Of a DNA stretch of 64,000 bases, positions 21,705-40,757 are shown one piece after another. The stretch is taken from positions 22 through 64,021 of the IMG/VR virus record IMGVR_UViG_3300012973_000014, one strand, 5' to 3'. Position 1 is the stretch's first letter; each line of letters begins with the position of its first letter. Origin of the DNA: a virus. Made by a program: the position numbers and the translations under genes. The notes under the pieces are model-generated. The model ran no database searches. It saw only the letters and a program-made list of their open reading frames with translations, and was not told where the DNA came from.

Positions 21705-21705
21705 T

Positions 21706-21734: not shown

Positions 21735-21769
21735 GGGTTACGAATTATTAACCAAAAAAACGAATTATT

Positions 21770-22126: not shown

Positions 22127-22224
22127 CGAACTGGCAGGGATGATGCGAATTATCTCTGCTTACCAATTATTAACCAACCCGAACGCGTGAGGGTGCTCCG
22201 AGAGGAGTTATGGCGCGTATAATT

Positions 22225-22853: not shown

Positions 22854-22921
22854 CGTATGCGGAGTCGAGTAGAGATATTCGGCTCTGTACTATGTTTAAC
22901 CAATTAAAAAATGAATGTATT

Positions 22922-23251
22922 ATGAAGAAATGTGAATCATGGAGCGATGTAGAGCAAATTATAGCTCCTTTTGTCAAGAGTTATTTTAGCATGGACGACG
23001 AGGTTGTACCGACATTCAAGGATAGTCTTGCACGGGTAGGAAATTCCTTCACTGGATATGACAGGGTAGTCTCGTTTCAGACTAAAGAGGGTGTTATCGG
23101 CGAGGTTAGGAAACCGGTAACGAATGGCTATGGAGAGGCTTATAGAGATAGATGTAAAGATGGGTTTGTGCTGGGACTTCTTGGTAAGAACAATAAATGG
23201 ATATATGGCCCTGTAGAGCACATTAAGAGTACGATTGAGCTTGCTAAGTAG
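22922..23251 (+). CDS. hypothetical early protein
   Basis: Start at the Met after the cassette. ORF track 22892..23251. Confidence 0.45.
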   Translation: MKKCESWSDVEQIIAPFVKSYFSMDDEVVPTFKDSLARVGNSFTGYDRVVSFQTKEGVIGEVRKPVTNGYGEAYRDRCKDGFVLGLLGKNNKWIYGPVEHIKSTIELAK

Positions 23252-23314
23252 TATTACTCCCTTGAACTCTGACAGGTTCTTGGGGGACGAATAACCAATA
23301 AAAAATTAAGTATT

Positions 23315-23605
23315 ATGATAAAATATGTATGGGTAGATGACCGAATTACTGGTAAACATACCTATGAAGTTGATATTGAGGATTTGCAGGACCTTTTAGA
23401 TTCTCTTAATGCCGTCATATATTATAAAAAGGTTTTTTATGAGAGGCTGTCTGATGTTCCACTAGAGGTTGAGCGTGAGCAAATCTGTAGCTATGGGCTT
23501 CCTACTAATCTTTATATCACAATGGCTCCTACTATAACAATAGTACCAAAGGGTACTACTATAAGGAAATGGTACATTTTTGAGGAGTTTGTGTTTCCTA
23601 GATAA
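23315..23605 (+). CDS. hypothetical early protein
   Basis: 96 aa. Cassette variant ATAACCAAT. Confidence 0.45.
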   Translation: MIKYVWVDDRITGKHTYEVDIEDLQDLLDSLNAVIYYKKVFYERLSDVPLEVEREQICSYGLPTNLYITMAPTITIVPKGTTIRKWYIFEEFVFPR

Positions 23606-23714
23606 GATATAGCCCGCCTGAGCTTTATCAGGCTTGTTTGTTTGTTTGTTTTCATAGCCCCGTACCGCTGGGAAGTGTTGCGGGGTACAATTATTAACCA
23701 TTAAAAGAAGTATT

Positions 23715-24011
23715 ATGGAAAGACCTAAATTTAAAGAAGAGCGGATTATGTTTTATACTAAAGCTGAGTTGAATAGAGAACTCTTGTGGTGGGAATGTCG
23801 ACTCTCTAATCTTAAATCTGGGATAAAAGATTATCGAGACCAGAAAGACTGGGAAGTTAATCAGGCTATAATGATGGCTAAGCATGCCATACAAAACACA
23901 CGGGCTTTGTTAAACTTAAATTTAGATGAGTATTATTTGCAAGGTTCAAAGGTGGTAGCTATTACCACTATAGCAGAGAAGCGTGATGACTTAAAGTATT
24001 ACTTCACATGA
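23715..24011 (+). CDS. hypothetical early protein
   Basis: 98 aa. Cassette upstream. Confidence 0.5.
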   Translation: MERPKFKEERIMFYTKAELNRELLWWECRLSNLKSGIKDYRDQKDWEVNQAIMMAKHAIQNTRALLNLNLDEYYLQGSKVVAITTIAEKRDDLKYYFT

Positions 24012-24054
24012 AGTGGGGTAATGCACTGATTGTTAACTAATTAAAAAAAGTATT

Positions 24055-24333
24055 ATGAATAGAAAACCATGCGTGTTTATAAAGGAGACACAAGAAAACC
24101 CTACAGCTGCGGTGTTGGTTGTACGGTTTGATGATTTAGACAAGATAGGTCATACTAGATTTGAAATAGATGGTAAGTTACACATTCTTACCCATCCTAC
24201 TACTGCCGGTATAGAGTCTATCCTACTCAGGAATATCTTGGCTATTAAAGGATATTCTATTATAGATGAGAGAGATTTTGTGTGGGAAGATGGAGCCATA
24301 GATGTTGAATTTGTAACTGATATGCCTTATTGA
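24055..24333 (+). CDS. hypothetical early protein
   Basis: 92 aa. Cassette upstream. Confidence 0.5.
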   Translation: MNRKPCVFIKETQENPTAAVLVVRFDDLDKIGHTRFEIDGKLHILTHPTTAGIESILLRNILAIKGYSIIDERDFVWEDGAIDVEFVTDMPY

Positions 24334-24349
24334 TAAAGGAGGACGAGTA

Positions 24350-24700
24350 ATGGATAAACAATTTTTAGACTTAAAGACGCGGATAGAAAACATGTCCACT
24401 GAGAAGTTCGTGCAGTGGATGAACGAGGTGTTCTTGAATCGTAATGACCACGGGTATTACTGCAAAATTCACGAGGTAGATGATGATAAATATTGGTCGG
24501 ACTATATGCGACCTATAGGGGCTGAGATTGCCATTGGCATCGCGAATGGTGTCGAATGGGGCCGTTTTAATCGCGGAGAGAGATATGTTATGTATGTAGA
24601 ATATGATGATAATTTCATCACTTTTGACACCAAGGAGCAGTTCTTTAACGAGATTTGGCCCTTGGATGATATTATTTATGAAATGAATTGTAGGAGGTAA
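24350..24700 (+). CDS. hypothetical protein
   Basis: 116 aa. Shine-Dalgarno-like AAGGAGGA upstream instead of the cassette. Confidence 0.5.
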   Translation: MDKQFLDLKTRIENMSTEKFVQWMNEVFLNRNDHGYYCKIHEVDDDKYWSDYMRPIGAEIAIGIANGVEWGRFNRGERYVMYVEYDDNFITFDTKEQFFNEIWPLDDIIYEMNCRR

Positions 24701-24779
24701 TATGAACAGAGCCGGATGCATACAGTTTACCAAGGGGTATCAGGATGATATCTTCTTGGATATAGGTAGTTAGGTCCAG

Positions 24780-25190
24780 ATGAAATCATTTAAGCTGGGC
24801 CTTGCTTTTGATATCCTGAATAACTTGCCTCTGCAGGCATATAACTTTGATTACGGGTATCATACAGACTTGTCTCCTTGCGCCCTATTCTTCAATCCTA
24901 TGATGCTGTACCAAGCCATTCAAACAGTAATGACGAGTGTGCAGATACGTTCAGGTGTTGGGGAAGACGGCGTTCTGGTCCGTAACAAGAAGGAACTTAC
25001 CAAGGCGATAATTGCCGGACACAAGGTGATATACACCGTCAAGCCTAAGTGTAAATCTCTGGCAGAACAGGCTGAGTTTTATATGGAATTATGCGAGTAT
25101 ACGGCGGTGATTGAACGGTATATATACAAGGTGGCAAGGAAGAGGATGTTCAAGATGTTTAAAGTTATGATGAGTGGGTCGGAGCAGTGA
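24780..25190 (+). CDS. hypothetical protein
   Basis: 136-aa ORF. Confidence 0.45.
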   Translation: MKSFKLGLAFDILNNLPLQAYNFDYGYHTDLSPCALFFNPMMLYQAIQTVMTSVQIRSGVGEDGVLVRNKKELTKAIIAGHKVIYTVKPKCKSLAEQAEFYMELCEYTAVIERYIYKVARKRMFKMFKVMMSGSEQ

Positions 25191-25229
25191 TGTTCCTTCC
25201 CTTCCAATTTTTAACTAAAATGAAGTATT

Positions 25230-25424
25230 ATGGAAACGAAAGAATGCAAGCAATGCCGAATAACACGCCCTTTGAGCGACTTTTGTATAAGGTTTGGTGT
25301 TATATCCAACACATGTAAACATTGTGGAAAAGCGTTAAGGAGGGAACGAAAGGAGTTTATTAAATCTATTATGCCAGCTGTGCTAAAATTAAGGGAGGAC
25401 TTAAGAAATGCCATCAGGAGATAG
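25230..25424 (+). CDS. small zinc-ribbon protein (paralog of 27213..27527 N-terminus)
   Basis: 'METKECKQC...CKHC'. Cassette upstream. Confidence 0.45.
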   Translation: METKECKQCRITRPLSDFCIRFGVISNTCKHCGKALRRERKEFIKSIMPAVLKLREDLRNAIRR

Positions 25425-26475
25425 ACCTGCAAAGAAGGTTGTTTGCGCTATTTGTGGCGTAGAGTTTTGGACTACGGGTACTAATACAAGGTACTGCGAT
25501 AATATCGCTTGTCGTAATGAAGCATCCCGGATTTCTGCTAAGAGGTGTTCTGAGAAGAAAGACGCAGATAAGATGAAGTACAAAGATTTGTATGACAAGG
25601 TTATAAAGGACGGTATAGACTGGGATTTACCAGCGACTTTGGATAAAATTACTGAAGCGATTAAACTCGTAGACGATTTATCTAAAATGATTAATGGTAA
25701 GTATTTAAACATGTCTATTACAGAACTAAAAGAAGCTTTGGTCATCTATAAGACAAAAAGATGTAATAGCGGTACATTAGAAACGGGTATTCCTGAAGTA
25801 GATGATTATGTAAGAGATAATATAATGGGTTTTATCGACTCATTATTTGATTACCAACGCTATTCATTGAAAGATATGGTTGATTGTTGCAGCCGTTTAT
25901 ATTTAGACAATACCCCTAACTATACATTATCAGAGGAAGATGCTAATTCTGGTAAGCCTTATAAATACTATGAGATTGTATATTTGAGCGAATTAGGTAA
26001 ATACCGTTTTCGTCAACTCAACGCTGGCGGACTTATAGAGGACTATTCGGGTAAGTGTTGTAATAAAGAGTGCCCATATAATTTTGAACCTTCTTATAAA
26101 TATTCATGGGAAAGGGGTCGTGGATGTTCTCTCATCTGCAACCAAGATGGCTCCCGCAGGTCATCTATTACACAAGGACGTTGTTCTTTATTTATAAGGT
26201 GTGAGTATAGAAGGCTGGTGGATGATAAGCAGAGAGCTATGAAAGCCTGTAGATATCATATTGCGAGAAGGTATTTAAAATACACCGTAGATTTTGAAAT
26301 TGTGAGAGCTTTACGAGAGTTATTCTTTTTAGAAAAGCTTCCTAATAAGAATGTTTCATCTCGTATGGTAAAACTGATTAGAGAAAATTGTGAAACTTTT
26401 ATAAAGAAAGATTTTTATTCTAAAAATAAGAAACTCATTGATAGATATAATTACTTACACAAAAAAACATTCTGA
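25408..26475 (+). CDS. hypothetical protein with N-terminal zinc ribbon
   Basis: 355 aa. 'CAICGVEF...YCDNIACRNE'. AAGGGAGGA upstream. Confidence 0.5.
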   Translation: MPSGDRPAKKVVCAICGVEFWTTGTNTRYCDNIACRNEASRISAKRCSEKKDADKMKYKDLYDKVIKDGIDWDLPATLDKITEAIKLVDDLSKMINGKYLNMSITELKEALVIYKTKRCNSGTLETGIPEVDDYVRDNIMGFIDSLFDYQRYSLKDMVDCCSRLYLDNTPNYTLSEEDANSGKPYKYYEIVYLSELGKYRFRQLNAGGLIEDYSGKCCNKECPYNFEPSYKYSWERGRGCSLICNQDGSRRSSITQGRCSLFIRCEYRRLVDDKQRAMKACRYHIARRYLKYTVDFEIVRALRELFFLEKLPNKNVSSRMVKLIRENCETFIKKDFYSKNKKLIDRYNYLHKKTF

Positions 26476-26478
26476 ATT

Positions 26479-26739
26479 ATGAAACCAGTAAACGAAAAAT
26501 CACTATTACATCACTTGTTTGAGCAGATGGATAAATTAGACAAGGGTGAAATTACTACCGAGCGAGCTGTTGCTCATGCTAAATTAGCAAATGAAGCCAC
26601 GAAATTATTCAAGCAGGAAATGGACCGAGCAAGGTTGTTTATGGATTTGCAAGACCATGCAGCCAAGACTGGTCAAATGATTGGGCTTAGAGAGTTAGCG
26701 TCAAAAGGATTTGATGATACGACCAAGGTGATTGGGTAG
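26479..26739 (+). CDS. hypothetical protein
   Basis: 86-aa ORF. Confidence 0.45.
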   Translation: MKPVNEKSLLHHLFEQMDKLDKGEITTERAVAHAKLANEATKLFKQEMDRARLFMDLQDHAAKTGQMIGLRELASKGFDDTTKVIG

Positions 26740-26835
26740 AACAAAGAGACTGGGACCTAATCGTCCCTTTCTCTGCCATTTTTAACCAGCACGGAGCCGG
26801 TGTAGTGCGCCTAAATAGGTAATGGCCGGATGATT

Positions 26836-26979
26836 TATGAGACAACAATTTGTGCAGTGCAGGTATCGCTACCAAGCATTAAAGGAATGCCCTTGGAGTA
26901 GTAGGGTTGCAAAAGTGAACGGTGGCTATATGTGCTTTGAATCAATTAGTGATTATTATACATGGAGGAATCAGAAATG
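26836..26979 (+). CDS. hypothetical small protein (47 aa)
   Basis: Read by hand behind the class-2 leader at 26780. Below the ORF-track size cutoff. Confidence 0.3.
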
Positions 26980-27210
26980 AACAAACAAAGAAGAAAGCGT
27001 TTAGAAGATGTTGTGTCCCGCCTTGAGGAATGCATGTCCGACTTGGAGTTTATCAAGGAAGAGGAGCAGGAGGCTTATGATAACCTACCTGAGTCAATCC
27101 AGTACTCAGAAAGGGGCGAGTTAATGCAGGAGATTGCTGATGATATAGATTATGCCATTAGCGATTTGGACCAAGTAATCGATAGTGTTAATGAAATAAT
27201 AAATAAATAG
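26962..27210 (+). CDS. small acidic helical protein
   Basis: 82 aa, D/E-rich. Confidence 0.45.
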   Translation: MEESEMNKQRRKRLEDVVSRLEECMSDLEFIKEEEQEAYDNLPESIQYSERGELMQEIADDIDYAISDLDQVIDSVNEIINK

Positions 27211-27212
27211 TT

Positions 27213-27527
27213 ATGGAAACAAAAGTATGTTCAGTGTGCGGTCAAGAGTTACCTCTTGAGGATTTCGTGAAAAATAGTAGATGCAAGGATGGGTATGGGG
27301 CTCATTGCAAGAAGTGTCATAACAAGAAATACCCTTATCATTATAAGGATAAAGCGAATAAGAAGGTTGAAGTTAAGGATGCTCCGGTTGTCTCTGATTA
27401 TGTAAAGAGAGAACTTGAGCAGAATAATCTGCTCGTCATTCCTCCACGCTTACTTATAGCAGCGTTGAGGTATCACGGTTATCGTGGTGAACTGCAGAAA
27501 GTGACAGTAGAGACTGTCGTTATTTAG
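27213..27527 (+). CDS. zinc-ribbon protein (paralog of 25230..25424)
   Basis: 'METKVCSVCGQELPLEDF...CKKCHNKK'. Confidence 0.45.
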   Translation: METKVCSVCGQELPLEDFVKNSRCKDGYGAHCKKCHNKKYPYHYKDKANKKVEVKDAPVVSDYVKRELEQNNLLVIPPRLLIAALRYHGYRGELQKVTVETVVI

Positions 27528-27577
27528 CAAGGGCTGGTGCGACGGCTTACAAGTATTAACCTTAAAAGATAAATGAT

Positions 27578-28093
27578 ATGGAATTATTGGAAACTATTGC
27601 TTACGAGCATGGATTGGATTTGATTGAAACGACTTCGGATGGAACCGGTTATCCTCGTGATTTGAAGTATGCTGTTATCGGTTTTGAAACCTTTGACGAG
27701 GCTCAGGAGTTGGCGGACAGGTATGGATTGACTGTTCGGGAGTTTACCAGACGTGATGGTTGGCAGCTTTGGGTGAGAGGTGGAAAGATGTTCGGGGAGT
27801 ATGATTATGAGAAAGTAATGGGCGAGGGGTATCCAAACGAAGTTATTAGAACGTATCGTCATACTGATGCTGAAGATGTTATATCCGATTTGAGAGAGCA
27901 CCTGCAGTATGCCAGCTTGCGTGATATGAAAATCCTGATTGAGAACGCTGAGGAGGTCTTAGAGAAGTTAGATGGCTGTCAACCGGATGAGTTTATTGTA
28001 ACATGCGCCGGAGAGTATGACGGCACTTATCATTGCAAAACCATGTCCTTCGCCTACGACTCTTCCCGATACGCAATCGGAATTGCGGAGTAA
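27578..28093 (+). CDS. hypothetical protein
   Basis: 171 aa. Cassette at 27559. Confidence 0.5.
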   Translation: MELLETIAYEHGLDLIETTSDGTGYPRDLKYAVIGFETFDEAQELADRYGLTVREFTRRDGWQLWVRGGKMFGEYDYEKVMGEGYPNEVIRTYRHTDAEDVISDLREHLQYASLRDMKILIENAEEVLEKLDGCQPDEFIVTCAGEYDGTYHCKTMSFAYDSSRYAIGIAE

Positions 28094-28187
28094 AAATAGG
28101 GCCGAGATGGCGAAAGCTGTCTCAGCCCACTTTTGTTAACCAGTGCCAAGCGGGGTGCGCACGCCCTTTTAGGGTTAATGGCCCGTA

Positions 28188-28637
28188 TTGCCTATGCAAG
28201 TATTCATTCCTTATGCAAGTCCGTTTGATACGGCAATGGCATTAAAAGGAGATAGACGCTTCTTAAAACAGATTCAAGAAACAAGACAGATTCTCTCTGC
28301 TATCTACGACCCGACAAGAGGATACGCTAATCATCCTGTGACTAAGATGTACAAGAATCATACTCAATGGCTTTATCTGTATCTCATGGTGTTTGAGTTT
28401 GTCAGAGACAACAATCTGATATCAGCCCGGTTCACTTCATTCTGCGCTGACAGATGCAGACCCGAGTGGATGACTGATGAGCTATGTGACCAGCATAAGA
28501 GACGCCTGTATACCAAGAATCCGCAGCGTTACCCACATTGGGCTCATCTTGGTACATCGCTGGAAAATTGGTATGTAGTGAACGGGGAGGTAAAAAAGTA
28601 CATTAATGGCAAAATAATTTTGCAAAATAAAAACTAA
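28188..28637 (+). CDS. hypothetical protein
   Basis: 149 aa. Behind the class-2 leader. Confidence 0.5.
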   Translation: MPMQVFIPYASPFDTAMALKGDRRFLKQIQETRQILSAIYDPTRGYANHPVTKMYKNHTQWLYLYLMVFEFVRDNNLISARFTSFCADRCRPEWMTDELCDQHKRRLYTKNPQRYPHWAHLGTSLENWYVVNGEVKKYINGKIILQNKN

Positions 28638-28736
28638 CCTATTAACTTTGTAAGAAAATTTGAGATATGACACTATTGTTTATTATATGGGGAATCGCGT
28701 ATTTCTGCGAGGAACTGATAAATGGAGGTAAATAGT

Positions 28737-29498
28737 ATGGTTTACGCGTATTATCGTTATTCTACAGGCAAGCAGACTGAGATGCAACAGGAGCATAGAG
28801 TTCGGGAATACTGCCATAACCGAGGCATAACTATCGACGCTGTGGTTATAGATAGAGCCGTAAGTGGAGCCATATCTATAGAAAACAGGAATCTCGCAGC
28901 GCTGATTGGAAAGATGAAGCCGGGGGATACATTGATTGTTTCAGAGGTATCACGTATATCCCGTTCTATTGGGGACTTCTGCGAGTTTATATTGGTTGCC
29001 ATGCCTAAGCTTAAAGCGAGGCTAATCGTCTGCAGTATGGGTCTGGATATAGATTGTGCTAATATGTCCGGTATGACGCAGATGCAGCTGATGATGTTTT
29101 CATGCTTCGCTCAGATAGAGCGAGAGCTTATTACGGACCGTATTCAGGCGGCAATAGACGCTCGCAAGGAAGCCGCTAAGGTTAACGGTGGTTGGACATC
29201 CAAGTCCGGCAATTACTGCACTCATTTGGGACGGGATTCGTTCAACGACCCTTCAGCAGCCGGTAAGAAATCGGCATTCAACAAGAAGAAGAAGTTTATG
29301 AAGGGTATGCGCCCGGTAGCGGAGCATATAAGGTTATTAAAAAGCACTACAGATTTGGATAATCTACGAATAGCTATTGCCCTTAATAATGCCGGATTCA
29401 GAACTGGCAACGGAGGTAAGTTCCATCATTCACATATACCTAAAATACTGAAATATGACGAAGAAGGTATCTATTACGAAGAAGCAGACTTCATGTAA
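28737..29498 (+). CDS. small serine recombinase (resolvase/invertase family)
   Basis: 'VYAYYRYSTGKQ' catalytic Ser motif, 'SEVSRISRS', C-terminal HTH. Start placed at the Met before the motif (ORF track 28722). Confidence 0.75.
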   Translation: MVYAYYRYSTGKQTEMQQEHRVREYCHNRGITIDAVVIDRAVSGAISIENRNLAALIGKMKPGDTLIVSEVSRISRSIGDFCEFILVAMPKLKARLIVCSMGLDIDCANMSGMTQMQLMMFSCFAQIERELITDRIQAAIDARKEAAKVNGGWTSKSGNYCTHLGRDSFNDPSAAGKKSAFNKKKKFMKGMRPVAEHIRLLKSTTDLDNLRIAIALNNAGFRTGNGGKFHHSHIPKILKYDEEGIYYEEADFM

Positions 29499-29556
29499 GA
29501 AATGTAAGGACTGCTATTGGGTTATCCCTGACATGAGCAACTTGTCAATACCGACA

Positions 29557-29579
29557 CAGGAACCTATAATGGGTTCCTG
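29557..29579. promoter_or_regulatory. 23-bp perfect palindrome CAGGAACC-TATAATG-GGTTCCTG (candidate recombinase site or operator)
   Basis: Seen directly in the sequence, 58 nt downstream of the recombinase stop. Confidence 0.35.
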
Positions 29580-29623
29580 CCGGTTCCAAAAATATAAAGT
29601 ATTACTTAATCAAAACGCATGCA

Positions 29624-30067
29624 ATGAGAACTTTAAGAAGAGAGATGAACGATAAGGAGAAAAATGAAATAAACTCCCTTATTAACAGCTATTTTGTCCT
29701 TATGGAGGGTGCTGATATGCTCATAAGGAGAAGTGAAGCTTTGTTTAACAATTTTGGACAAGGATGGGATGGTAATCGAAAGATGAGACACAACCGTATA
29801 ATGCGCCATGTGTCCGCATTAAAGCTGGAGCTGGATTCATTCTTCAAAGACTATGAGTGCTTCGGTAAGGGCGAGAACTATGTAACCAAGTATGACATGA
29901 TGCGTGATGCAGCTTCATATATAACAAGATTGACACTCCTTATAGGAGATAGGACCTGCAGGGAAGATGAGAAGAGAGTTAGGCAGAATATCTGGGATTA
30001 CATCTATTACTTGCCTGAGCAAGGGTTGATTACTGATGAGGCTTTGGATAAACTTAAAATGAGGTAG
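29624..30067 (+). CDS. hypothetical protein
   Basis: 147-aa ORF. Start may be Met-8. Confidence 0.45.
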   Translation: MRTLRREMNDKEKNEINSLINSYFVLMEGADMLIRRSEALFNNFGQGWDGNRKMRHNRIMRHVSALKLELDSFFKDYECFGKGENYVTKYDMMRDAASYITRLTLLIGDRTCREDEKRVRQNIWDYIYYLPEQGLITDEALDKLKMR

Positions 30068-30091
30068 CGCAACAGGTGGAAATAAAATTGA

Positions 30092-30427
30092 TTGAAGATA
30101 AAGAGAGCAGTAATGAATAGTGAATTATCAGAAGGTATATACATTATCCCAAAGCAATATAAGGTTATTGTTAGTGGAAATGAAGTTCACGTCCTTCCTC
30201 GCAAAGTGCTTAAAGAATATCGTTGTAAGGACTGCGAGTACAGACAGGAGGGGTATGCCACGATAAACGCATATCATAAGTCTTGGGTATGTAAACAACG
30301 CCCCAAAGAGATACTTAACCCAAATTATTGCAATCAAACTATATTCTATTGTGCTCCATATTATGGGAGGCCCTGTAAGGAGTTCAAATTGAAAGGAGGT
30401 GATAGTCATGAAAGAAGAAAGAGGTAA
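30092..30427 (+). CDS. Cys-rich zinc-finger-like protein
   Basis: 'CKDCEY...WVCKQRP...YCNQ'. Confidence 0.4.
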   Translation: MKIKRAVMNSELSEGIYIIPKQYKVIVSGNEVHVLPRKVLKEYRCKDCEYRQEGYATINAYHKSWVCKQRPKEILNPNYCNQTIFYCAPYYGRPCKEFKLKGGDSHERRKR

Positions 30428-30562
30428 AGAATATCTGCTACACCCTATAGACCAGTTGCAGATGTTGGAAATGCAAAAGATGGATGCAGTGCTGAAGCAG
30501 CGCAAAGCAGAACTTGCGAGAGAGTTCCCGTTCAAGAAAAGAGGATTCAGGAAACATGTAAG

Positions 30563-30961
30563 ATGATTATGAAAAACTTTGAATTTAAGAGTCAAGTGGC
30601 AACGAGCGTAGAACAAAGTAAACGCTTGTTAGAATTAGGTCTCAAGAAGGAGACTGCGGATATGACAATCCATATCAAGAAAGATAACTCTTGGTATGTG
30701 ACCGCAGAACCTTTCTACGAATGGGAAGATGATATGAACACTCTTCCGAGTTGGGAAGAACCAGAGTTGATAATCCCCGCTTGGAGCCTGCACAGGTTGG
30801 TTGAAATGATAAATTATCCTTCTAATATAGATGCTATTAAAGAATTACTTGCTGCAAAAACTATGTTTAATGATAGATTATATGATAGGGTAATTGATAT
30901 AATTGAATATCTTATTAGTAATAATAATTTTAACAAAGATTATCTGGAGGAGAGGAAATGA
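30563..30961 (+). CDS. hypothetical protein
   Basis: 132-aa ORF. Confidence 0.45.
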   Translation: MIMKNFEFKSQVATSVEQSKRLLELGLKKETADMTIHIKKDNSWYVTAEPFYEWEDDMNTLPSWEEPELIIPAWSLHRLVEMINYPSNIDAIKELLAAKTMFNDRLYDRVIDIIEYLISNNNFNKDYLEERK

Positions 30962-31258
30962 TAAAAGACCAAATCATAAACAAAGAACTACAAGACATTC
31001 TAAAGCAATACCCAGATGATGCGATAGTGAGTATTGAGTATTGCAACATTAGAGAGTTGAAGTATTACGAAGATAAGAACTTAATTGTAATTAATTAGTT
31101 ATGACTGCAAATGAAGTTATACACTATATGAGGTATGGCGTATTGATGAACACTCTTGATATACCTGTCAAAGTAAATGGTAAGGAGATAACTGATATTA
31201 AGTTGGTAGGGAGCAATGAGGATGGTAACTTTTATTTTAATCTTAAAACTGAATAGAA

Positions 31259-31447
31259 ATGAAATATAGGATTATAAAAAGGTCTTTTGGTTCCATAAAT
31301 GAATATATGCCTCAAAGAAAATGGTTAGGCATCTGGTGGAATATATCTACTTTTTGGTGTAAGTGTTACTCAACTGCTGAAGATAGAATTTTGGAATCAA
31401 AAGCAAGTAGACAAAAAAAGATATACGAAGTTATTTGGGAGGAATAA
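31259..31447 (+). CDS. hypothetical protein
   Basis: 62-aa ORF. Confidence 0.3.
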   Translation: MKYRIIKRSFGSINEYMPQRKWLGIWWNISTFWCKCYSTAEDRILESKASRQKKIYEVIWEE

Positions 31448-31863
31448 AAATGAACGGAGAAATACAAGAAAGACCAACAAATAAAACACCTATGATATAT
31501 ACAGGTGGAGATTTTATTACTCCTTATCCTATGACTGAGGAGTTTATTAGAGAACTTGCAGACCTATACAATAAGTACGGGATAGATTCAAAGTTGAATA
31601 TGCGAGATTTCTTACTTGCAGAAATGTCTTACAACTTCCTTGCTGTAATGCACAATACAATGCGAAAAGAGAGTGAGATGCAAGAATCCAACGAAGGTCG
31701 TGCACTACTATACGCAGTTGAAAAGACCGCAGAGAGGACTAAGAGGGAGATGATTGAAAAGGCGGCGGAGTGGATGCGAAATTTTAAAGATGGTCAAGGT
31801 AATTTTCCACTATACGATTATGTCGGGAATCTTAAACAAGCAATGGAAGATGAAAGCAAGTGA
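31435..31863 (+). CDS. hypothetical protein
   Basis: 142-aa ORF. Confidence 0.45.
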   Translation: MGGIKMNGEIQERPTNKTPMIYTGGDFITPYPMTEEFIRELADLYNKYGIDSKLNMRDFLLAEMSYNFLAVMHNTMRKESEMQESNEGRALLYAVEKTAERTKREMIEKAAEWMRNFKDGQGNFPLYDYVGNLKQAMEDESK

Positions 31864-32071
31864 TTGGATTAAGGTAGAGGATAGGTTGCCAGAGATATGT
31901 GAGGATGTGCTTTTCTCTTGGGTTGGTAATAGTAATGTAAGGGAGTATGGAGTTGGGTATTATACGAATCTTTACATAAATAAAGAAGGGTTTATCTTAA
32001 AATACAAAGGTATCATACCATTAAAGTTTGTTGATTATTGGATGCCTATCGTACCACCAAAGGAAGATTGA
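31850..32071 (+). CDS. hypothetical protein
   Basis: Start at Met 'MKASDW', overlapping the previous stop. ORF track 31754..32071. Confidence 0.35.
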   Translation: MKASDWIKVEDRLPEICEDVLFSWVGNSNVREYGVGYYTNLYINKEGFILKYKGIIPLKFVDYWMPIVPPKED

Positions 32072-34507: not shown

Positions 34508-34861
34508 TTAAAATGAACTTGTTGCATCAGCCGCCGCTGCTGCCGCAGGTGCTTCATAAGTCCCTACTAATTGCAATCTTCCTGTACGGCTATTGTAATA
34601 AACAAGTACTAAACTTGATGTACCTACCCCTCCTATATCGGCTACGGTAGCCTGCCCTCCTATTGAGTTAAGAAGTTGTACCGAGCCGAAAAGAATAGGC
34701 AGTTCATCTGTAGCAGTCGTCGGGATTGGCTGCTGTAAATCCACGAGCAGCAAACCTGTAAAAGCTGTATTACGGAAAGCCTCAAATGTGTATGTTACAT
34801 TTGTTGCAGTCGCAGTAACACCTATACTCTCAATCCCTATCGTTCTGTTCAAGATAAACAT
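34508..34861 (-). CDS. hypothetical beta-rich protein with C-terminal poly-Ala
   Basis: 117 aa. T/V/G-rich. Confidence 0.45.
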   Translation of the reverse strand: MFILNRTIGIESIGVTATATNVTYTFEAFRNTAFTGLLLVDLQQPIPTTATDELPILFGSVQLLNSIGGQATVADIGGVGTSSLVLVYYNSRTGRLQLVGTYEAPAAAAAADATSSF

Positions 34862-34872: not shown

Positions 34873-35811
34873 TTAAAATGCGTTATTAAAGCCATTGCAG
34901 AAGTTTCCGTAAGGGAAACCATAACCGGCTCCGAAGCCATAACCACAGTAAGGAGCATAAGCTACATTAATACTGCGATTTACTGGAACATACTCAGGAG
35001 TCGCAGTGATTACCTCAGTCTTAGGAAGACGGCATTTAATACTCTCAAGCTCAGCCGCAATAGGGTTTGTAGCTGCGGCAATCATATTGCCAAGCTTATA
35101 AGTCTGTTTCTCCTCCTGAAGAGTAGCAATCTCTCTCTGAAGCTCTCTCTTCTCGATAGCAGCCTGACCAGCAAGAATCTGAGCAGTAGAATCCTTAATC
35201 GCATTCTCAAGAGCACAAGTCTGGTCTTTCTGAGCATAAGCTACTGATGAAAAACCTTGGCTCAAAATCTGATTGGTATTACAAAAACCTCTTTCTGTTA
35301 GGTAATTAGACTCAAGAATACCCTTCTCTATTGAACAGCAACAAGAAGCAATCTGGCTTGCTAGAGCGTTATTACCCTGCATCAATGAAGTGATAATCTG
35401 GTTAGTACTCTGACCCATCTGAGTACCAAGGTTACAAATCTGGGTTGATACCTGACCGATAGCGTCTCTTACGCGGTCTACTGAACAGTTAATTGACTGA
35501 GCCAACTGTGAAAGGTCTACACCGTTTCTCTGGATGGCTGACATAAGCATCTCACGCTCTGCATTAGCAGCTGCGTAATTACCATTGCCATTGTTACCAA
35601 AACCGAAGTTACCGTTGCCGAAGATGGCTGCTACTACGATTAGAGCCAAGATATCTTGGAACCCGTTACCGCCCCAAAAACCATTGCCACCACCATTGTT
35701 CATAATACCCATCAAGTAAGCTGGGTCAATACCTTTGCTCTGGAGCAAAGAAGGAAGCATAGCGCTTAGATTGCCGGCTCCCGAGTCAAAAACATAAGTT
35801 TTGTCTGACAT
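34873..35811 (-). CDS. glycine-rich, Cys-cluster protein of unknown function
   Basis: 312 aa. 'GGGNGFWGGNGFQD', hydrophobic 'ILALIVVAAIFGNGNFGFGNNGNGNY', 'SCCCS', C-terminal 'CGYGFGAGYGFPYGNFCNGF'. Confidence 0.5.
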   Translation of the reverse strand: MSDKTYVFDSGAGNLSAMLPSLLQSKGIDPAYLMGIMNNGGGNGFWGGNGFQDILALIVVAAIFGNGNFGFGNNGNGNYAAANAEREMLMSAIQRNGVDLSQLAQSINCSVDRVRDAIGQVSTQICNLGTQMGQSTNQIITSLMQGNNALASQIASCCCSIEKGILESNYLTERGFCNTNQILSQGFSSVAYAQKDQTCALENAIKDSTAQILAGQAAIEKRELQREIATLQEEKQTYKLGNMIAAATNPIAAELESIKCRLPKTEVITATPEYVPVNRSINVAYAPYCGYGFGAGYGFPYGNFCNGFNNAF

Positions 35812-36034
35812 AATGTTTTTTCGTTATAACAAAATTGAGTGCGCTTTATGGGAGGCACTGTTGTCCCTTGTTGCAACAATACGAAGGTATAACAAGGCAA
35901 ATCGGGAAAAGTTCATTCTATCAAGAAAAAATTATTGTACTGAATATGTGAGTGTTACCTGATAGGTGTGAAGATAATTTTGCAAAATAGGAGTTAAATA
36001 CCTTACTTTGTAGAAATTTTAAAAGAAAGCGGAT

Positions 36035-36277
36035 ATGAAAAAATTGTTTATTCTTATGCTCGGAGTGGTTCTGCTCGCGAGTTGTTGCGCCAGCGACCCA
36101 AGTAATTACAAGAAGTATGAAGTCAAATTACCGGATGGCTCTGTGGAGTATGTCAGAGCAGCGTATTGTCATGAACACGGTAGCGGAGTAGTAGAGTTTG
36201 GACCGGGACGCATCGTTATCTACAAAAATTTTGTTTCAATCAGAAAAGTGGAGATAAGAGCTCATGAGAGACGATAA
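36035..36277 (+). CDS. small lipoprotein
   Basis: Signal peptide plus lipobox 'VLLASCCAS'. 80 aa. Confidence 0.55.
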   Translation: MKKLFILMLGVVLLASCCASDPSNYKKYEVKLPDGSVEYVRAAYCHEHGSGVVEFGPGRIVIYKNFVSIRKVEIRAHERR

Positions 36278-36506
36278 CAACTGGATGTTTGTTGCAGTAG
36301 CTTGTCTTGGGAGTTTTTTAATAGCCGTGGCAATGAGCTACCTTATAACACAAAGCGAACTGCAGCCTTATATGAAGCTCAAGGAGGAGCTAGAAGTTAT
36401 TAAAGACAGTCTGGCTATCCAACACAACCATTTTCACATCACTATAGAGAAAGACACAATAATAACACAGAAAGTATGTATAGACTTATCATCACTCTCG
36501 CAATAG
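36264..36506 (+). CDS. small membrane protein
   Basis: TM helix 'MFVAVACLGSFLIAVAMSYLI'. Confidence 0.4.
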   Translation: MRDDNNWMFVAVACLGSFLIAVAMSYLITQSELQPYMKLKEELEVIKDSLAIQHNHFHITIEKDTIITQKVCIDLSSLSQ

Positions 36507-36637
36507 CATGCCTTATCGTTTACTACATAGTATGCTTCGCTGAGATTTTCGGGCTCATGAAGATTACCAAAAAGGGTAGTATCAAGCCATCAAAACTGTT
36601 AATCCCATTTTATTACTTATTTAAAAACTAAAACATT

Positions 36638-37816
36638 ATGAACAAAAAACAATTAGGCTCCATCATTCTTGGAGCGGCTGTAATCCTTATGCTTTGCTTT
36701 GTAGGCAAGTTCGGAGAGGATGTGTCAAATGAGAAAATCGTTGTTAACCAGTTTCCATTCTCAGGTAAGATGGCGTACTGGACCACTCCGGGTTGGAAAT
36801 GGCAAGGCTGGGGTTCCACCACCGAGTACTACAAGACTCAGCAGTATTGGTTCGGAGGTAAGGATGCGGACGGAAATGAGCATGGTACTCCAATTAGAGT
36901 TATCTTCAATGACGCGTCGGTAGGATATATCTATGGCTCCTTGCGAATCAAGCTCCCTACAAGCGAGGATAAGTTGGCCAAGATTCATACAGACTACAAC
37001 GGAATGGACCGCTTGATGAATGACCTTGTATCACAAACTGTAGTAAAAGTAGTATACGCTTCCGGTCCGCTAATGTCAGCGTTTGAGTCTTACGCAGAAA
37101 AGAAAAACGACCTTATCGCTTATGTTGATGACCAGCTGACCAACGGTGTATACAAGACCTCAGTAAAAGAGATTGTAACCGTAGATTCATTTACCGGAGA
37201 GGAGAAGAAAATCAAAGTGGCGTCGCTATTCGCTGACGAGAACGCTCCGGGCGGATACAAACGTTCAGAGACCTCACCATTCGCGTATTACGGCATTGAG
37301 ATTGGTCAGGTAGCTATCTCAGAGATTCAGTATGACGAGAAGGTAACCAAGCAGATTGAGACTCAGCAACAGGCTAACATGTCTATCCAGACCAAGAAAT
37401 CAGAGGCATTGGCAGCACAGCAGGATGCTATCAAAGCCGAGGCTGAAGGTAAAGCTGCTGCAGCAAAAGCCAAGTGGGAGCAGGAGAGAATCAAGGCTAC
37501 GGAGGTAACTAAAGCGGAGCAGGAGTTTGAGGTTGCAAGACTAGCTGCTCTTAAAGCGAAGGAGGAGGCTAAGAGAATTGAAGCTGAAGGTGCTGCTAAG
37601 GCTGCCGCTAACAGAGCATTGGTAAGTGCAGGTCTTACTCCACTTGAGAAAGCGACTATTGAGAAAGAGACCAAGATTGGCGTAGCTCAAGCTCTTTCAC
37701 AAATCAAACTCCCTACTATCGTAAGCGCAGGAGGTCAGGGCGGAAACGGCAACACAGCCATGGACGCTATGGGCCTTAAAATGATGAAATCACTGGTAGA
37801 TGAGATGAGTAAATAA
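36638..37816 (+). CDS. SPFH/band-7 (flotillin/HflK-like) membrane protein
   Basis: N-terminal TM, central SPFH-like domain, C-terminal A/K/E-rich coiled coil 'AEAEGKAAAAKAKWEQERIKA...'. Confidence 0.6.
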   Translation: MNKKQLGSIILGAAVILMLCFVGKFGEDVSNEKIVVNQFPFSGKMAYWTTPGWKWQGWGSTTEYYKTQQYWFGGKDADGNEHGTPIRVIFNDASVGYIYGSLRIKLPTSEDKLAKIHTDYNGMDRLMNDLVSQTVVKVVYASGPLMSAFESYAEKKNDLIAYVDDQLTNGVYKTSVKEIVTVDSFTGEEKKIKVASLFADENAPGGYKRSETSPFAYYGIEIGQVAISEIQYDEKVTKQIETQQQANMSIQTKKSEALAAQQDAIKAEAEGKAAAAKAKWEQERIKATEVTKAEQEFEVARLAALKAKEEAKRIEAEGAAKAAANRALVSAGLTPLEKATIEKETKIGVAQALSQIKLPTIVSAGGQGGNGNTAMDAMGLKMMKSLVDEMSK

Positions 37817-37820
37817 AAAG

Positions 37821-37847
37821 AGGGACCATTAAGGTCCCTTTATTTTT
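37821..37847. terminator. bidirectional terminator hairpin
   Basis: AGGGACCattaAGGTCCCTttattttt, with an A-run on the 5' side. Confidence 0.55.
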
Positions 37848-38133
37848 GCAATATCCTCTTGAAATCTCGAAAGCGAAAGAACGCCTTGGCAGTTACTTTC
37901 TTCTCTTTAGGAAGCTTGCGCGACACATCATTCATCAGGACTCTCTTATCCTTATTGAAATACTTCGCCGCAGTATCATAATCAACCAAAGGATTCATAA
38001 GTGTCATCAGGAAATTACTGGCTGTTTCAGCCGTATTGGAATCTATATTGTCGAAAGCACCTGCCTCTGACATTTGGTACAGCTCTTTAATCAGGCCGCG
38101 GGACCTATCGTTTTGTTCTGACATATCTAACAA
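37840..38133 (-). CDS. hypothetical protein
   Basis: 97-aa ORF. Confidence 0.4.
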   Translation of the reverse strand: MLDMSEQNDRSRGLIKELYQMSEAGAFDNIDSNTAETASNFLMTLMNPLVDYDTAAKYFNKDKRVLMNDVSRKLPKEKKVTAKAFFRFRDFKRILQK

Positions 38134-38506
38134 AGTCTTTAATTTGTATTCCGAAATGGATTAAGCATCCTATTATACCGGCTAAGATAAGTAAAATTGC
38201 TAATATGTTGGTAATATTGTAGAATGCAATGGAAGGGAAGGAGTCGTAGAAATAGCAAGAAAGTGAGGCGTAAAGCACGCTGAGTATGACTAAACGGTAA
38301 TAGATACAGAAGTGTTCGTATAAAGAGATGATGAAGCAGAGGGCGAGAGTGAAATAACTGAAAAGACAAAAGTTGGCCATCCATTTTAAGTCAATCTCCA
38401 GTTCAAGTAACCAGTTTAAGAAATGAATGACTTGATAAACACCAAGCAAAATAGGGATAACTGCTATCAAGGGTAAGTATATAAATGCTAACACAGACCG
38501 TTTCAT
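38105..38506 (-). CDS. polytopic membrane protein (4 predicted TM; holin candidate)
   Basis: 133 aa. Hydrophobic segments. Near the lysis genes. Confidence 0.4.
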   Translation of the reverse strand: MKRSVLAFIYLPLIAVIPILLGVYQVIHFLNWLLELEIDLKWMANFCLFSYFTLALCFIISLYEHFCIYYRLVILSVLYASLSCYFYDSFPSIAFYNITNILAILLILAGIIGCLIHFGIQIKDFVRYVRTKR

Positions 38507-38742
38507 TTAACTCTTACTTTTATAACTTGCTTCAAACTATCGTTTTCTATTTGTAGAGAATCATTTTGCTCACTAAGAGAATCATTTTGCTCACTAAGAG
38601 AATCAACTTGTTTCTCTAATTCTTTCACTTTTCTATCCATCTCCTCATTCCTATTCCCCACATACACCTTTCCCTTGATTTTCTTCTTAAGTTCTTCAAG
38701 TGAAGGTAACTTTTTCAGCTTTTTCCTTTGCTTTTTCGCCAT
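38503..38742 (-). CDS. small coiled-coil protein with an in-frame 21-bp tandem repeat
   Basis: 'DSLSEQNDSLSEQNDSL'. The DNA 'aagagaatcattttgctcact' is duplicated at 38559-38600. Confidence 0.4.
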   Translation of the reverse strand: MAKKQRKKLKKLPSLEELKKKIKGKVYVGNRNEEMDRKVKELEKQVDSLSEQNDSLSEQNDSLQIENDSLKQVIKVRVK

Positions 38743-39055
38743 AACTAACTATATTTGCACCGAACAATGCAGGTTAAATAGTTTTTTAAGTTATCCCCGC
38801 CGTTTTCGCAACGGTGGGGTTTTTATTTATAAAGAACGGCCCTCAAGTGACAAGCCTGAGAGCCTTATTTAAGTAGTCTATATGGCTATTTCCATTTTGG
38901 AAACACCCACTAAATCATCTCCCATTGAGGTATTCCATCCTTCTTGCCAATACATCTCAACTTCTCGCCTTTTTCTGTCTCAATGATGTCGCCAATCTCA
39001 GTAACAGCATTAAGTTCTTCCTGTGTCATTTCAATCTTTTCCATACTATTATTAA

Positions 39056-39535
39056 CTAAAATTGTATAAAATTATAACTTATTCCTATTCCTATATACGG
39101 GTAAAATCCTTCACCACTTATAGCGTATCCTCCTTGTATGCCTATTCCCCATTTTTTCGGCCTCTCCCGCACATATTCGGTTTGGGTAATATATTTAGTC
39201 GTAATTCGTGGATAGATTCTTATTTCTTCCAAGTAAGCGTTAATACCGCTAATCTTTGCGTAGTAGGTGCTATCCTTGTACTCCTTAACCTCTTGGAACA
39301 ACATCTGACCGGCTAAATAAATAGTGTCTTTCAATATAACTGTATCTCTTACCTCCACCCTATACGGCACAGGCTTGGGAAAATATTGCGTATCAATCTG
39401 CACATCAATCACTGTATCCCTCACTATTTTCATCTCTGGCCCCTTTACTGGGCTCTGGCACGATTTCATTAGCATCATACCGAGCAAGGCCCCAACAAAG
39501 AGTAGCAGCAAATATATACCCCCAGTCCTTACCAT
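39056..39535 (-). CDS. putative lipoprotein / o-spanin-like protein
   Basis: N-terminal signal 'LLLLFVGALLGMMLMKSC'. Sits in the lysis cassette. Confidence 0.4.
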   Translation of the reverse strand: MVRTGGIYLLLLFVGALLGMMLMKSCQSPVKGPEMKIVRDTVIDVQIDTQYFPKPVPYRVEVRDTVILKDTIYLAGQMLFQEVKEYKDSTYYAKISGINAYLEEIRIYPRITTKYITQTEYVRERPKKWGIGIQGGYAISGEGFYPYIGIGISYNFIQF

Positions 39536-39927
39536 TCTCTGATTGCATTCTTAAGAGCCTCCTCAGCTTTATTTACCGCATCCTTAAGACGCTCTATTTC
39601 CCGCAGCTGCTCTTCGCTTTTAACCGGTGCTCCTCTAAGCCAATTGTTATAATTGCAGTGTACTACACCTAACATACTGCATCGTAAAGCGTAATCATAA
39701 TACTTCCAATATTCACCGCGTGGAGCATCCTTCTCGATATCTACCATCATATCTGCAAGAGAGACGTAGTAGTCACAGATATTAGCTACCCCGCCAATAT
39801 CTATCCATTCAGCATCTCTTACATCAAACTCATGTTTCTTACAAAACTCAGCGAGATATGCATTACAAGCATTCTCGTAATTACTTCTTAATGACTGAAC
39901 CATTGAAATCCTTTTTAAATAATTCAA
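39529..39927 (-). CDS. hypothetical protein
   Basis: 132-aa ORF. Confidence 0.4.
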   Translation of the reverse strand: MNYLKRISMVQSLRSNYENACNAYLAEFCKKHEFDVRDAEWIDIGGVANICDYYVSLADMMVDIEKDAPRGEYWKYYDYALRCSMLGVVHCNYNNWLRGAPVKSEEQLREIERLKDAVNKAEEALKNAIREW

Positions 39928-40336
39928 ATTCTGCTGCTCGGCGCCTCTCGAGGCCTTTAAGTTTCTTACCTCTGGATTTAACCCACATCATCCACGCCTT
40001 GCGATACTCGTTAATATCACTGATTTTATAGTTAATAACCTTACGGATTGTAGATGTACAGAAATTACCTGAGCCTATATTGTATACCAGAGACACAAGA
40101 GCATCAAACTGACTTTGTCTAAGAGGTGTGCTGACAAGATGTGATACAGCCTCCTCAGCTTCTCGTAAATCTTCCTTGAGGAGGTCTTCTGCCTCCGACT
40201 CCAATATGGAATCTCCAGCCCTAACGCCACGAGTATGACCATAGCCTATAGTCCATACACCTCCGGGGCACAGATAAGCATTCTTTCGGAAGCCTTCAAA
40301 CTCCTTAATTAAATCAATTCCTTCCTTACTTGTTTT
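39881..40336 (-). CDS. GH24 lysozyme (endolysin)
   Basis: 'EGIDLIKEFEGFRKNAYLCPGGVWTIGYGHT' T4-lysozyme signature. Start placed at 'MKTSKEG' (ORF track extends to 40414). Confidence 0.85.
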   Translation of the reverse strand, partial: KTSKEGIDLIKEFEGFRKNAYLCPGGVWTIGYGHTRGVRAGDSILESEAEDLLKEDLREAEEAVSHLVSTPLRQSQFDALVSLVYNIGSGNFCTSTIRKVINYKISDINEYRKAWMMWVKSRGKKLKGLERRRAAEFELFKKDFNGSVIKK

Positions 40337-40757
40337 CATCCTTTCGTAAACAATGTGGTTTATAAGTTCCTTTTTCTGGCTTTCTATTAGGACAAGGGTC
40401 CACAAAGCATACATTCACACTGGTAAACCCAAGAGCTTCCTCAAGCGCCTCCATCCTGTTTTCCAATTTCAATAAACGCCTACTGAGTTCATAGTTCTCG
40501 GACTCCTTCTCTAAGTTCTCCTTTCTAGAATCAGCAAGACGCTCCAAAGCCTGAGAAGCTATCTCCTCCGATGCCCCGATACGCCTATGGTCCAAATCAA
40601 AATCCTTCTCCTGTGTCGATATATGCTCCTGAACAGTATGCTCTTTCTCCTGTCTAACTCCCTCTCTATCCATGCGCGTTTTATAACGCTCCTGACGGAC
40701 CTTGTCCCAGAAGGTAAAAAGCGCAAGTACTACAACTAGTATCTGTTCCCAATCCAT
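40326..40757 (-). CDS. membrane/coiled-coil protein (holin or i-spanin candidate)
   Basis: N-terminal TM 'ILVVVLALFTFW', then a charged coiled coil. Overlaps the lysozyme start. Confidence 0.4.
   Translation of the reverse strand: MDWEQILVVVLALFTFWDKVRQERYKTRMDREGVRQEKEHTVQEHISTQEKDFDLDHRRIGASEEIASQALERLADSRKENLEKESENYELSRRLLKLENRMEALEEALGFTSVNVCFVDPCPNRKPEKGTYKPHCLRKDENK

Follow-up and report, generated by a model that had tools for sequence, protein, structure and literature searches.

A phage SPFH/Band-7 gene and its conserved single-pass micro-protein partner

The operon and its SPFH protein

The DNA analyzed here is a stretch of 64,000 nucleotides from a tailed phage of Bacteroidales (positions 22 to 64,021 of IMG/VR virus record IMGVR_UViG_3300012973_000014; in the following referred to as the window, whose coordinates are used unless stated otherwise). 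At 36035-37816, its + strand carries four densely packed genes. The last encodes a 392-aa SPFH/Band-7 protein and the third a 51-aa single-pass transmembrane (TM) protein; these two genes form a pair which we also found in other phages and in bacteria, and which is the subject of this analysis. An earlier note on this DNA had described a lipoprotein gene, a TM protein gene, the 392-aa open reading frame (ORF) and a terminator at this locus, all of which were found in place. The 51-aa gene had not been listed separately. The locus comprises the following features:

35975-35982, + strand: candidate Bacteroides-type -7 element, TAATTTTG, corresponding to TAnnTTTG; the first gene begins about 55 nt further downstream
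36035-36277, + strand: 80-aa lipoprotein ORF with a signal peptide and the lipobox L-A-S-C-C; the protein begins MKKLFILMLGVVLLASCC
36264-36506, + strand: 80-aa single-pass protein (TM80) with a TM helix at residues 10-28, a short coiled coil and a beta tail
36476-36631, + strand: 51-aa single-pass partner protein (class A, see below) with one TM helix
36638-37816, + strand: 392-aa SPFH/Band-7 protein of a distinct clade
36650-36706, + strand: N-terminal TM helix of the SPFH protein, residues 5-23 (hydrophobic window; AlphaFold2 model)
36734-37408, + strand: Band_7/SPFH core, residues 33-257 (Pfam match; alpha/beta core in the model)
37337-37699, + strand: Ala/Lys/Glu-rich helical hairpin, residues 234-354, with an invariant KAKWEQE motif
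37819-37841, both strands: bidirectional intrinsic terminator, common to the SPFH gene and the convergent - strand gene 37840-38133

All four ORFs end in standard stop codons and follow one another with overlaps of 14 nt and 31 nt and then a gap of 6 nt. The three small ORFs are real genes, since they are retained as intact ORFs in relatives. Directly 3′ of the SPFH stop codon lies the terminator, a GC-rich stem of 9 bp between an A-run and a T-run. Both strands fold, with free energies of -14.8 kcal/mol (+ strand) and -14.0 kcal/mol (- strand) and z-scores of -4.5 and -3.6, respectively, and its stability was reached by none of the shuffled sequences (0/200); the structure deserves its previous description as a strong bidirectional terminator. 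At the other end of the operon, TAATTTTG is the sole match to TAnnTTTG in the 223-bp gap 35812-36034, and none exists within the operon. The density of this pattern is 0.55 per kb on the + strand window-wide, with about 0.12 matches expected by chance in the gap. Judged by the motif, this site is a candidate promoter element.

The 392-aa protein matches the Pfam family Band_7 (PF01145) over residues 33-257 with an E-value of 3.7e-9 and 37.3 bits (curated cut-off 23.6), and a precomputed PF01145 annotation is present on most of its homologs. A lack of Band_7 homology, which the earlier note had named as a ground for rejecting its SPFH assignment, was thus not observed. Residues 5-23 form a hydrophobic window, and an N-terminal TM helix is found in 136 of 137 family representatives. 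Residues 234-354 consist of Ala, Lys and Glu to 54%, vs. 31% for the whole protein. An AlphaFold2 (AF2) monomer model, built from an alignment of 27 sequences, reached a mean predicted local distance difference test (pLDDT) score of 63 and a predicted template modeling (pTM) score of 0.42. It shows, in this order, the N-terminal TM helix, an alpha/beta core, a helix of 56 residues, a return helix and a C-terminal helix. When the model was compared with PDB structures using Foldseek, the top 40 or more matches were all SPFH cage proteins with a probability of 1.0, and no other fold appeared among the top matches. The hits include HflC (5e-8), prohibitin (1e-7), erlin, flotillin, stomatin, the major vault protein and the QmcA-YbbJ complex (QmcA in 8z5g, 1e-4). 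The hairpin at residues 234-354 corresponds to the wall-forming CC1/CC2 helices of these cages. By Pfam match, AF2 model and fold search, the 392-aa protein is an SPFH/Band-7 membrane scaffold, and the architecture read from the sequence before (N-terminal TM helix, SPFH core, Ala/Lys/Glu-rich coiled coil) is borne out by domain match, composition and model.

By sequence, the protein is only distantly related to all of these cage proteins. It matches phrog_11908 (2.4e-43), and a single-sequence search of PDB returned no matches. With a profile of 29 sequences, the best PDB match was prohibitin-1 (E-value of 0.005, via the coiled coil), and HflC was matched at 0.14. No HflK or HflC model of NCBIfam was found at E-values up to 0.1. 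A HMMER scan of 1.84 billion representative sequences yielded 1,030 clusters, 304 of them at an E-value of 1e-30 or below; proteins of the best 150 clusters are mostly about 380-450 aa long. A number of 1,030 clusters is far too small to take in the canonical HflK/C or stomatin families, and we therefore regard these proteins as a discrete SPFH clade. As far as sequence searches can tell, which gave no link to HflK/C, stomatins or flotillins, this clade is separate. Four clusters of “conserved ORFs” in antisense or alternate frames inside the SPFH gene (C1, C2, C5, C6) were dismissed as spurious, because they overlap the conserved SPFH coding sequence.

The partner gene and the accessory genes

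The neighborhoods of related SPFH genes were compared in 79 viral loci and 80 loci from genomes or metagenome-assembled genomes (MAGs), encoding SPFH relatives of 31-71% identity. A tblastn search with 19 window neighbors against the viral loci and two annotated Kehishuvirus loci returned the 51-aa ORF as the sole common gene; its counterpart in phage crAss001 is gp92. Of 80 viral loci, 62 have, at most 450 bp upstream, a single-pass ORF with a hydrophobic-Pro-hydrophobic-aromatic motif directly behind the TM helix, and a further 14 have an upstream TM ORF with a near variant of this motif. The motif background among small ORFs is about 3%, and the partner genes account for most of these matches. 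When all ORFs located within 5 kb at 162 loci were clustered without supervision, only two widespread neighbor families were left, both of them small single-pass proteins whose genes precede the SPFH gene in the same orientation. Class A was found at 52 loci, is about 51 aa long and has the consensus YY...K-I-T-x-K...I-P-F-Y-Y; it includes the proteins of the window and of crAss001. Class B (77 loci, about 93 aa) has a TM helix ending in T-Q-V-I-x-P, followed by L-F-P-x-F-R-K and a coiled coil. In the 51-aa protein of the window, the TM helix ends in YY, and a basic K-I-T-x-K loop and the invariant motif I-P-F-Y-Y are present; Y16, P44, F45, Y46 and Y47 are invariant. The gap between partner and SPFH gene has a median of about 30 nt, and in T5-like Vibrio phages a 52-aa TM protein gene ends 2 nt before the SPFH gene.

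Searching with a profile of the partner only, we obtained 214 clusters, all unannotated. Five divergent matches were used for a reciprocal test: the next gene is an SPFH gene in four of them, and the fifth keeps an SPFH remnant of 43 codons. The conserved core of the module is, accordingly, two genes, i.e., the partner micro-protein and the SPFH protein, and the pairing is near-universal in phages and bacteria. No match for the partner was found in Pfam (NfeD included) or PHROG, and at E-values up to 1 neither Flot nor NfeD matched any operon protein or nine partner homologs. An identity of the partner as NfeD (PF01957) was rejected, as it consists of 51 aa with one TM helix and has no soluble OB-fold domain; class B adds a coiled coil only. 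Homology between classes A and B could not be demonstrated (hhalign probability 23%).

Several further arrangements around the pair were noticed. In a large group of loci from Bacteroidales phages (L013-L026, L036-L038, L043, L045 etc.), a 26-aa hydrophobic mini-ORF (MAPLFIILVICLLILLIDCFKNKRKH) lies between partner and SPFH gene, e.g., at 5840-5920 of L015. Upstream, this group has genes for a lipoprotein of 80 aa with an AVSCC lipobox and for a TM coiled-coil protein of 99 aa. This is a four-gene architecture as in the window; the lipoprotein has no detectable sequence similarity to that of the window. At a single locus (L004, 5025-5711), a ClpP-like serine protease gene is located directly upstream of the partner. 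It recalls the long NfeD/ClpP-type proteases of stomatin operons and could equally be a phage prohead protease. In L172 (3892-5126), the partner-SPFH pair is immediately followed by two genes of the TerD-domain family (tellurite/stress resistance) and preceded by RNase H and AAA genes.

The two first genes of the window operon are distributed differently. For the lipoprotein, only 13 homolog clusters exist, with 70-100% identity and an invariant SCC lipobox. It is present in L162, whose SPFH protein is 89% identical to that of the window, and absent from L163-L166 (SPFH identity about 80%). TM80 is kept in all close relatives (71% identity in L162, 60% over 45 aa in L165 and L166). In 32 other Bacteroidales-phage loci, a gene of cluster C8 encoding, like TM80, a TM helix, a coiled coil and a beta tail precedes the partner. 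The copies of L163 and L003 score as members of this family; membership of TM80 itself is not significant, since 18 of 200 shuffled sequences score as high. In this lineage, the operon thus consists of the conserved two-gene core, a third gene which is probably conserved, and the lipoprotein as a recent add-on. The trio of lipoprotein, TM protein and SPFH protein had been proposed as one functional unit. Its SPFH scaffold part stands, and the unit as such is not supported, as the lipoprotein is already missing at about 80% SPFH identity and the universal partner is the 51-aa ORF.

T5 Llp, a small lipoprotein which blocks the FhuA receptor, had been named as an analogy for the trio. The AF2 model of the window lipoprotein (pLDDT 72) shows a small all-beta mature domain. 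Foldseek found no significant match in PDB, all top 50 hits having E-values of 0.1 or above, and T5 Llp was not among them; a weak fold resemblance to the small YgdR/DUF903 lipoproteins was seen at E-values of 0.2 or above. Pfam, PHROG and NCBIfam gave no link to Llp either, and the analogy is left with neither sequence nor fold support. Lipoprotein and TM80 as an o-spanin/i-spanin pair were rejected as well: the lipoprotein is absent from L163-L166 while the TM80 gene persists, and the two genes and the lysis block, which has DUF2514 and DUF6808 candidates of its own, are on opposite strands.

Expression, topology and genomic setting

The crAss001 ortholog allows a view on expression. Its gp91 shares 45% identity with the 392-aa protein over the full length, and gp92 shares 37% with the 51-aa ORF. 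Expression changes in crAss001 are as follows:

gp91: 1.7 / 2.3 at 10 min; 8.8 / 8.2 at 30 min
Replication genes gp84-gp90: about 0 to 1.6 at 10 min; about 8.4 to 10.9 at 30 min
Early genes gp100-104: about 8-10 at 10 min; small at 30 min
Late gene gp9: about 7.5 at 60 min

Between 10 and 30 min, gp91-gp93 rise by about 8 log2 units. Because its time course matches that of the replication genes gp84-gp90, gp91 is a middle gene. MALDI mass spectrometry of crAss001 virions reported structural proteins and RNA polymerase (RNAP) subunits but not gp91 (PMC6235969). In a crAss001-like metagenomic genome (L173, 2501-2921), whose neighboring genes are 93-100% identical, gp91 and half of gp90 are deleted, and the gp92 ORF runs on into the first approximately 43 codons of gp91. 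This points to gp91 being non-essential, unless the assembly is defective. In the literature, no paper was found that ties crAss001 to SPFH or gp91 by name, nor a functional study of a phage SPFH protein.

These data also bear on the idea that the protein is a virion structural or assembly protein, e.g., a scaffold, and that the Band_7 match is incidental. The operon does lie beside a - strand block with lysis, tail and head genes, and its product has a long coiled coil. However, this protein has an N-terminal TM helix and a full-length fold match to SPFH cages, its gene is on the opposite strand with its own terminator, the ortholog is a middle gene not listed among virion proteins, and the module occurs in bacterial chromosomes. 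A structural role is, therefore, largely refuted and exceedingly improbable; the non-structural nature assumed before agrees with the ortholog's expression class and with the reported virion proteins.

The membrane topology was predicted using the positive-inside rule alone, for 136 SPFH representatives and 105 partners. In the SPFH proteins, Lys and Arg residues prevail before rather than after the TM helix (mean 2.1 vs. 0.7; 104 vs. 8 of the 136 representatives), and the C-terminal flank is acidic. The family is predicted to have its N-terminus in the cytoplasm and its SPFH domain in the periplasm, as in HflK/C. The pattern is reversed in 103 of the 105 partners, for which an outside N-terminus and an inside C-terminus with a basic cytoplasmic tail are predicted. 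Of the flotillin, HflK and YqiK types to which its architecture had been likened, flotillin and YqiK fit less well, as there is neither a Flot domain nor an NfeD partner and the predicted topology faces the periplasm, as in HflK/C.

Considering all of this, we propose, as a reading with an even chance of being correct, that the pair is an accessory inner-membrane module with neither a structural nor a core lysis function, made up of an SPFH cage and a micro-protein. By analogy with the solved SPFH assemblies, the SPFH protein would form an oligomeric ring or cage that stands on the host cytoplasmic membrane, on its periplasmic side. This ring may fence off a membrane patch. The SPFH TM helices would be arranged in a ring as well, and the TM helix of the partner may pack between them or in the interior of that ring, making the partner a minimal, non-homologous functional counterpart of NfeD. 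Made together with the replication (middle) genes, the module would condition the membrane in infection, during host transcription shutdown. Proteins of the inner membrane, e.g., a protease of the FtsH type or membrane proteins of the phage, may be sequestered or shielded in this way. The lineage of the window would have added two upstream envelope proteins, i.e., the TM and coiled-coil protein and the lipoprotein.

Some points weigh against this proposal. The expression and virion data were obtained in another phage, on an ortholog of 45% identity. That a cage forms and that the partner contacts it is suggested by analogy, and the monomer model is moderately confident judging from its pLDDT and pTM values. 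The SPFH protein of the window itself has Lys/Arg counts of 2 vs. 2, so that N-in is favored here only by the acidic C-flank and the family trend. If the topology is right, the partner motif and the SPFH domain are on opposite membrane faces, which limits contact to the TM helices. Further, there are two partner classes whose homology, as stated above, is not demonstrable. Finally, FtsH as a client is suggested only by the precedent of HflK/C and prohibitin.

The module is also found outside phages. In four Bacteroidota chromosomes (contigs of 0.5 to 6 Mb), the pair is set among unrelated housekeeping genes, which points to a cellular origin or role:

Copy 1: LigD, MFS transporter, arginase
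Copy 2: histidine kinase, CinA, peptidase S46
Copy 3: DAG (diacylglycerol) kinase, UvrD
Copy 4: MacB, rhomboid, EF-G; here only, an AIPR abortive-infection gene about 5 kb away

No linkage to ftsH was seen in the sampled chromosomal loci. In a Chryseolinea chromosome (L115, 551-2275), the AIPR gene lies about 5 kb upstream of the pair, with intervening ORFs of 176, 778 and 248 aa which have no Pfam match. The L118 copy has phage-like neighbors. The module is also carried, at 60-70% identity, by many contigs labeled “Bacteroidales MAG” (L082-L096; 100-300 kb, rumen datasets), which may represent large phage genomes that ended up in bacterial bins. Further copies were detected in Patescibacteria and Nanoarchaeota bins.

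The most attractive rival to our proposal is superinfection exclusion, also raised in the earlier note, or an anti-defense function. Scaffold and partner, here with the lipoprotein, would alter or sequester inner-membrane or envelope components which other phages need for DNA entry, or blunt membrane-acting abortive infection, so that the infected cell is shielded from competitors. An accessory, dispensable and portable cassette with its own terminator, located in unrelated phages within blocks of small early or middle genes and, in crAss001, expressed ahead of the late genes, would suit such a function. In the Vi01-like phage PhiSH19, an SPFH gene is found directly downstream of an annotated “superinfection exclusion protein”; however, the Vi01 SPFH protein (263 aa) may lie outside the clade. 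The AIPR gene near one chromosomal copy contrasts with three of the four sampled copies, which have housekeeping neighbors only, and the PADLOC defense models gave no match to the 392-aa protein. The small lipoprotein recalls the T5 precedent, but it is neither conserved with the module nor similar to Llp. On balance, we regard exclusion as possible but doubtful. A broader version, in which the pair is a portable “membrane compartment” cassette moving between bacteria and phages and walling off host inner membrane, e.g., to exclude superinfecting phages or to neutralize membrane-acting abortive-infection effectors or FtsH, appears unlikely to us.

In the window, the operon is placed between two - strand blocks, and the block at 38-62 kb carries lysis, tail and head genes. 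Its lysis part (38105-40757, - strand) converges on the SPFH operon and includes:

38105-38506, - strand: 133-aa multi-TM protein, possibly a holin
39056-39535, - strand: DUF6808 protein; N-terminal signal, C-terminus rich in Gly and aromatic residues
39881-40414, - strand: GH24 lysozyme, its start overlapped by the DUF2514-like gene
40326-40757, - strand: TM and coiled-coil protein with a weak DUF2514 (spanin-like) match

In L165 (8545-8943), a Peptidase_M15_3 gene occupies the position of the lysozyme, a classic endolysin swap.

One reading of this neighborhood is a role in lysis timing, in which an SPFH cage would corral a holin- or pinholin-like small protein (the partner or TM80) or stabilize the membrane, delaying holes until assembly is done. 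Convergence on a lysis block (lysozyme or M15 peptidase, DUF2514, DUF6808) is shared by the window, L162 and L165. Peptidoglycan hydrolases of differing families are near the module in the window lineage and in Kehishuvirus. In Kehishuvirus and L174, such a gene is located one or two genes downstream, and a glucosaminidase gene is upstream in L163. Moreover, lysis by crAss001 is delayed and desynchronized. Family-wide, however, a homolog of any of four endolysin families is present in the fetched flanks of only 2 of 161 loci, on which count a general association of module and endolysin was rejected. Chromosomal and T5-like copies have no lysis neighbors. In addition, gp89-gp93 of crAss001 are middle genes, whereas holin and endolysin are late genes according to the crAss001 paper, and the natural deletion of gp91 suggests that the gene is not required. 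Lysis timing, which had been offered as an explanation before, has weak and only local support, none across the family, and is very unlikely in general.

As for the remainder of the window, hallmarks of a phage are a major head protein (59436-60545), a tail fiber of 2,534 aa, a lysozyme, a primase and a helicase; a methyltransferase and an ORF of 1,628 aa are present, too. Among deposited phages, no relative at the DNA level was found. The genetic code is standard, as read-through of TAG or TGA lengthens no ORFs anywhere in the window. A crAss-like identity was considered and ruled out: there is no DNA match, there are no giant RNAP-type ORFs and no stop-codon recoding, and only the SPFH and partner genes resemble crAss001. 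At 28722-29498, the + strand encodes a serine recombinase (PHROG DNA invertase or integrase, 7e-29). The phage looks lytic otherwise; this gene could be a sign of an invertible segment or of a temperate lifestyle. The GC skew is strong and strand-specific, about +0.28 at 12000-32000 (+ strand) and about -0.35 at 4000-12000 (- strand). ORFs in these regions are nearly all short, few reach 230 aa, and most are without a PHROG match; no tRNAs and no sign of stop-codon reassignment were found there. In L162, the closest syntenic relative, a NUMOD4/HNH homing-endonuclease gene (3583-4257) is inserted between two - strand genes which are adjacent in the window (34508-34861 and 34873-35811).

Comparison with known systems

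Structures of SPFH cages (HflK/C, prohibitin, flotillin, stomatin, erlin) have become available recently, and their function is still a matter of debate. A virus-borne SPFH protein which is compact, dispensable and has a single partner of 50 aa would be a simple system for asking what such a cage encloses and why. The module is open to experiment because crAss001 and T5-like Vibrio phages, which carry it, are in culture. An answer would give a role to a pair which many gut Bacteroidales phages possess and whose annotation is limited to “SPFH/band 7” and “hypothetical.” Exclusion or anti-defense, if true, would bear on phage competition in the gut; a housekeeping-like role would make the module an auxiliary gene set for membrane maintenance; and with a membrane-compartment cassette, virus-encoded SPFH cages would gain their first functional class, and SPFH proteins a new kind of partner that is independent of NfeD.

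Listings of SPFH genes in T4-like and Vi01-like phages date back to 2006. The classification of prokaryotic SPFH proteins by Hinderhofer et al. (2009; PMC2636767) includes small uncharacterized subfamilies (SPFH6-12) and lateral transfer, whereas phages and a micro-protein partner do not appear in it; there and in a 2026 Pseudomonas survey, NfeD partners only are reported. Since gp91 of crAss001 is already annotated as SPFH/band 7, the bare observation of a phage SPFH protein is known. The separation of the clade from the HflK/C, flotillin and stomatin groups and its near-universal pairing with a non-NfeD micro-protein appear to be undescribed so far.

The closest known system is crAss001 itself (Kehishuvirus; PHROG 11908), where the “SPFH-domain/band7-family protein” gp91 has the same partner gene, gp92, directly upstream. 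In crAss001, the pair is located in the early/middle arm, co-directional with the replication genes, whereas in the window it sits, together with two additional genes upstream, in a + strand island that stands alone next to the lysis block. T5 Llp is alike only in being a small phage-encoded lipoprotein, while the lipoprotein of the window is restricted to close relatives. To the prokaryotic, prohibitin-like SPFH4 group, the likeness consists of prohibitin-1 being the best profile match in PDB, and the clade could not be mapped onto the SPFH numbering.

Escherichia coli HflK/HflC, which forms a periplasm-facing cage around FtsH, shares the SPFH fold (HflC being the best Foldseek match), the helical hairpin, one TM helix and the lack of an NfeD partner; a short cytoplasmic N-terminus and a periplasmic bulk, as in HflK/HflC, are predicted from the family trend. 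It differs in being a pair of paralogs, K and C, whereas the window and related loci have a single SPFH gene. Further, the window protein matches no HflK/HflC model of NCBIfam, its similarity to HflC in the profile search is confined to the coiled coil, and it has a micro-protein partner. QmcA-YbbJ, YqiK-YqiJ and FloT-YuaF resemble the present operon in another respect, as an SPFH gene forms a two-gene operon with a small membrane partner, often encoded upstream. In contrast to these SPFH and NfeD operons, the partner described here spans the membrane once and lacks an OB-fold NfeD domain, and a Flot domain is absent; QmcA and flotillins face the cytoplasm, and the orientation predicted here is the opposite.

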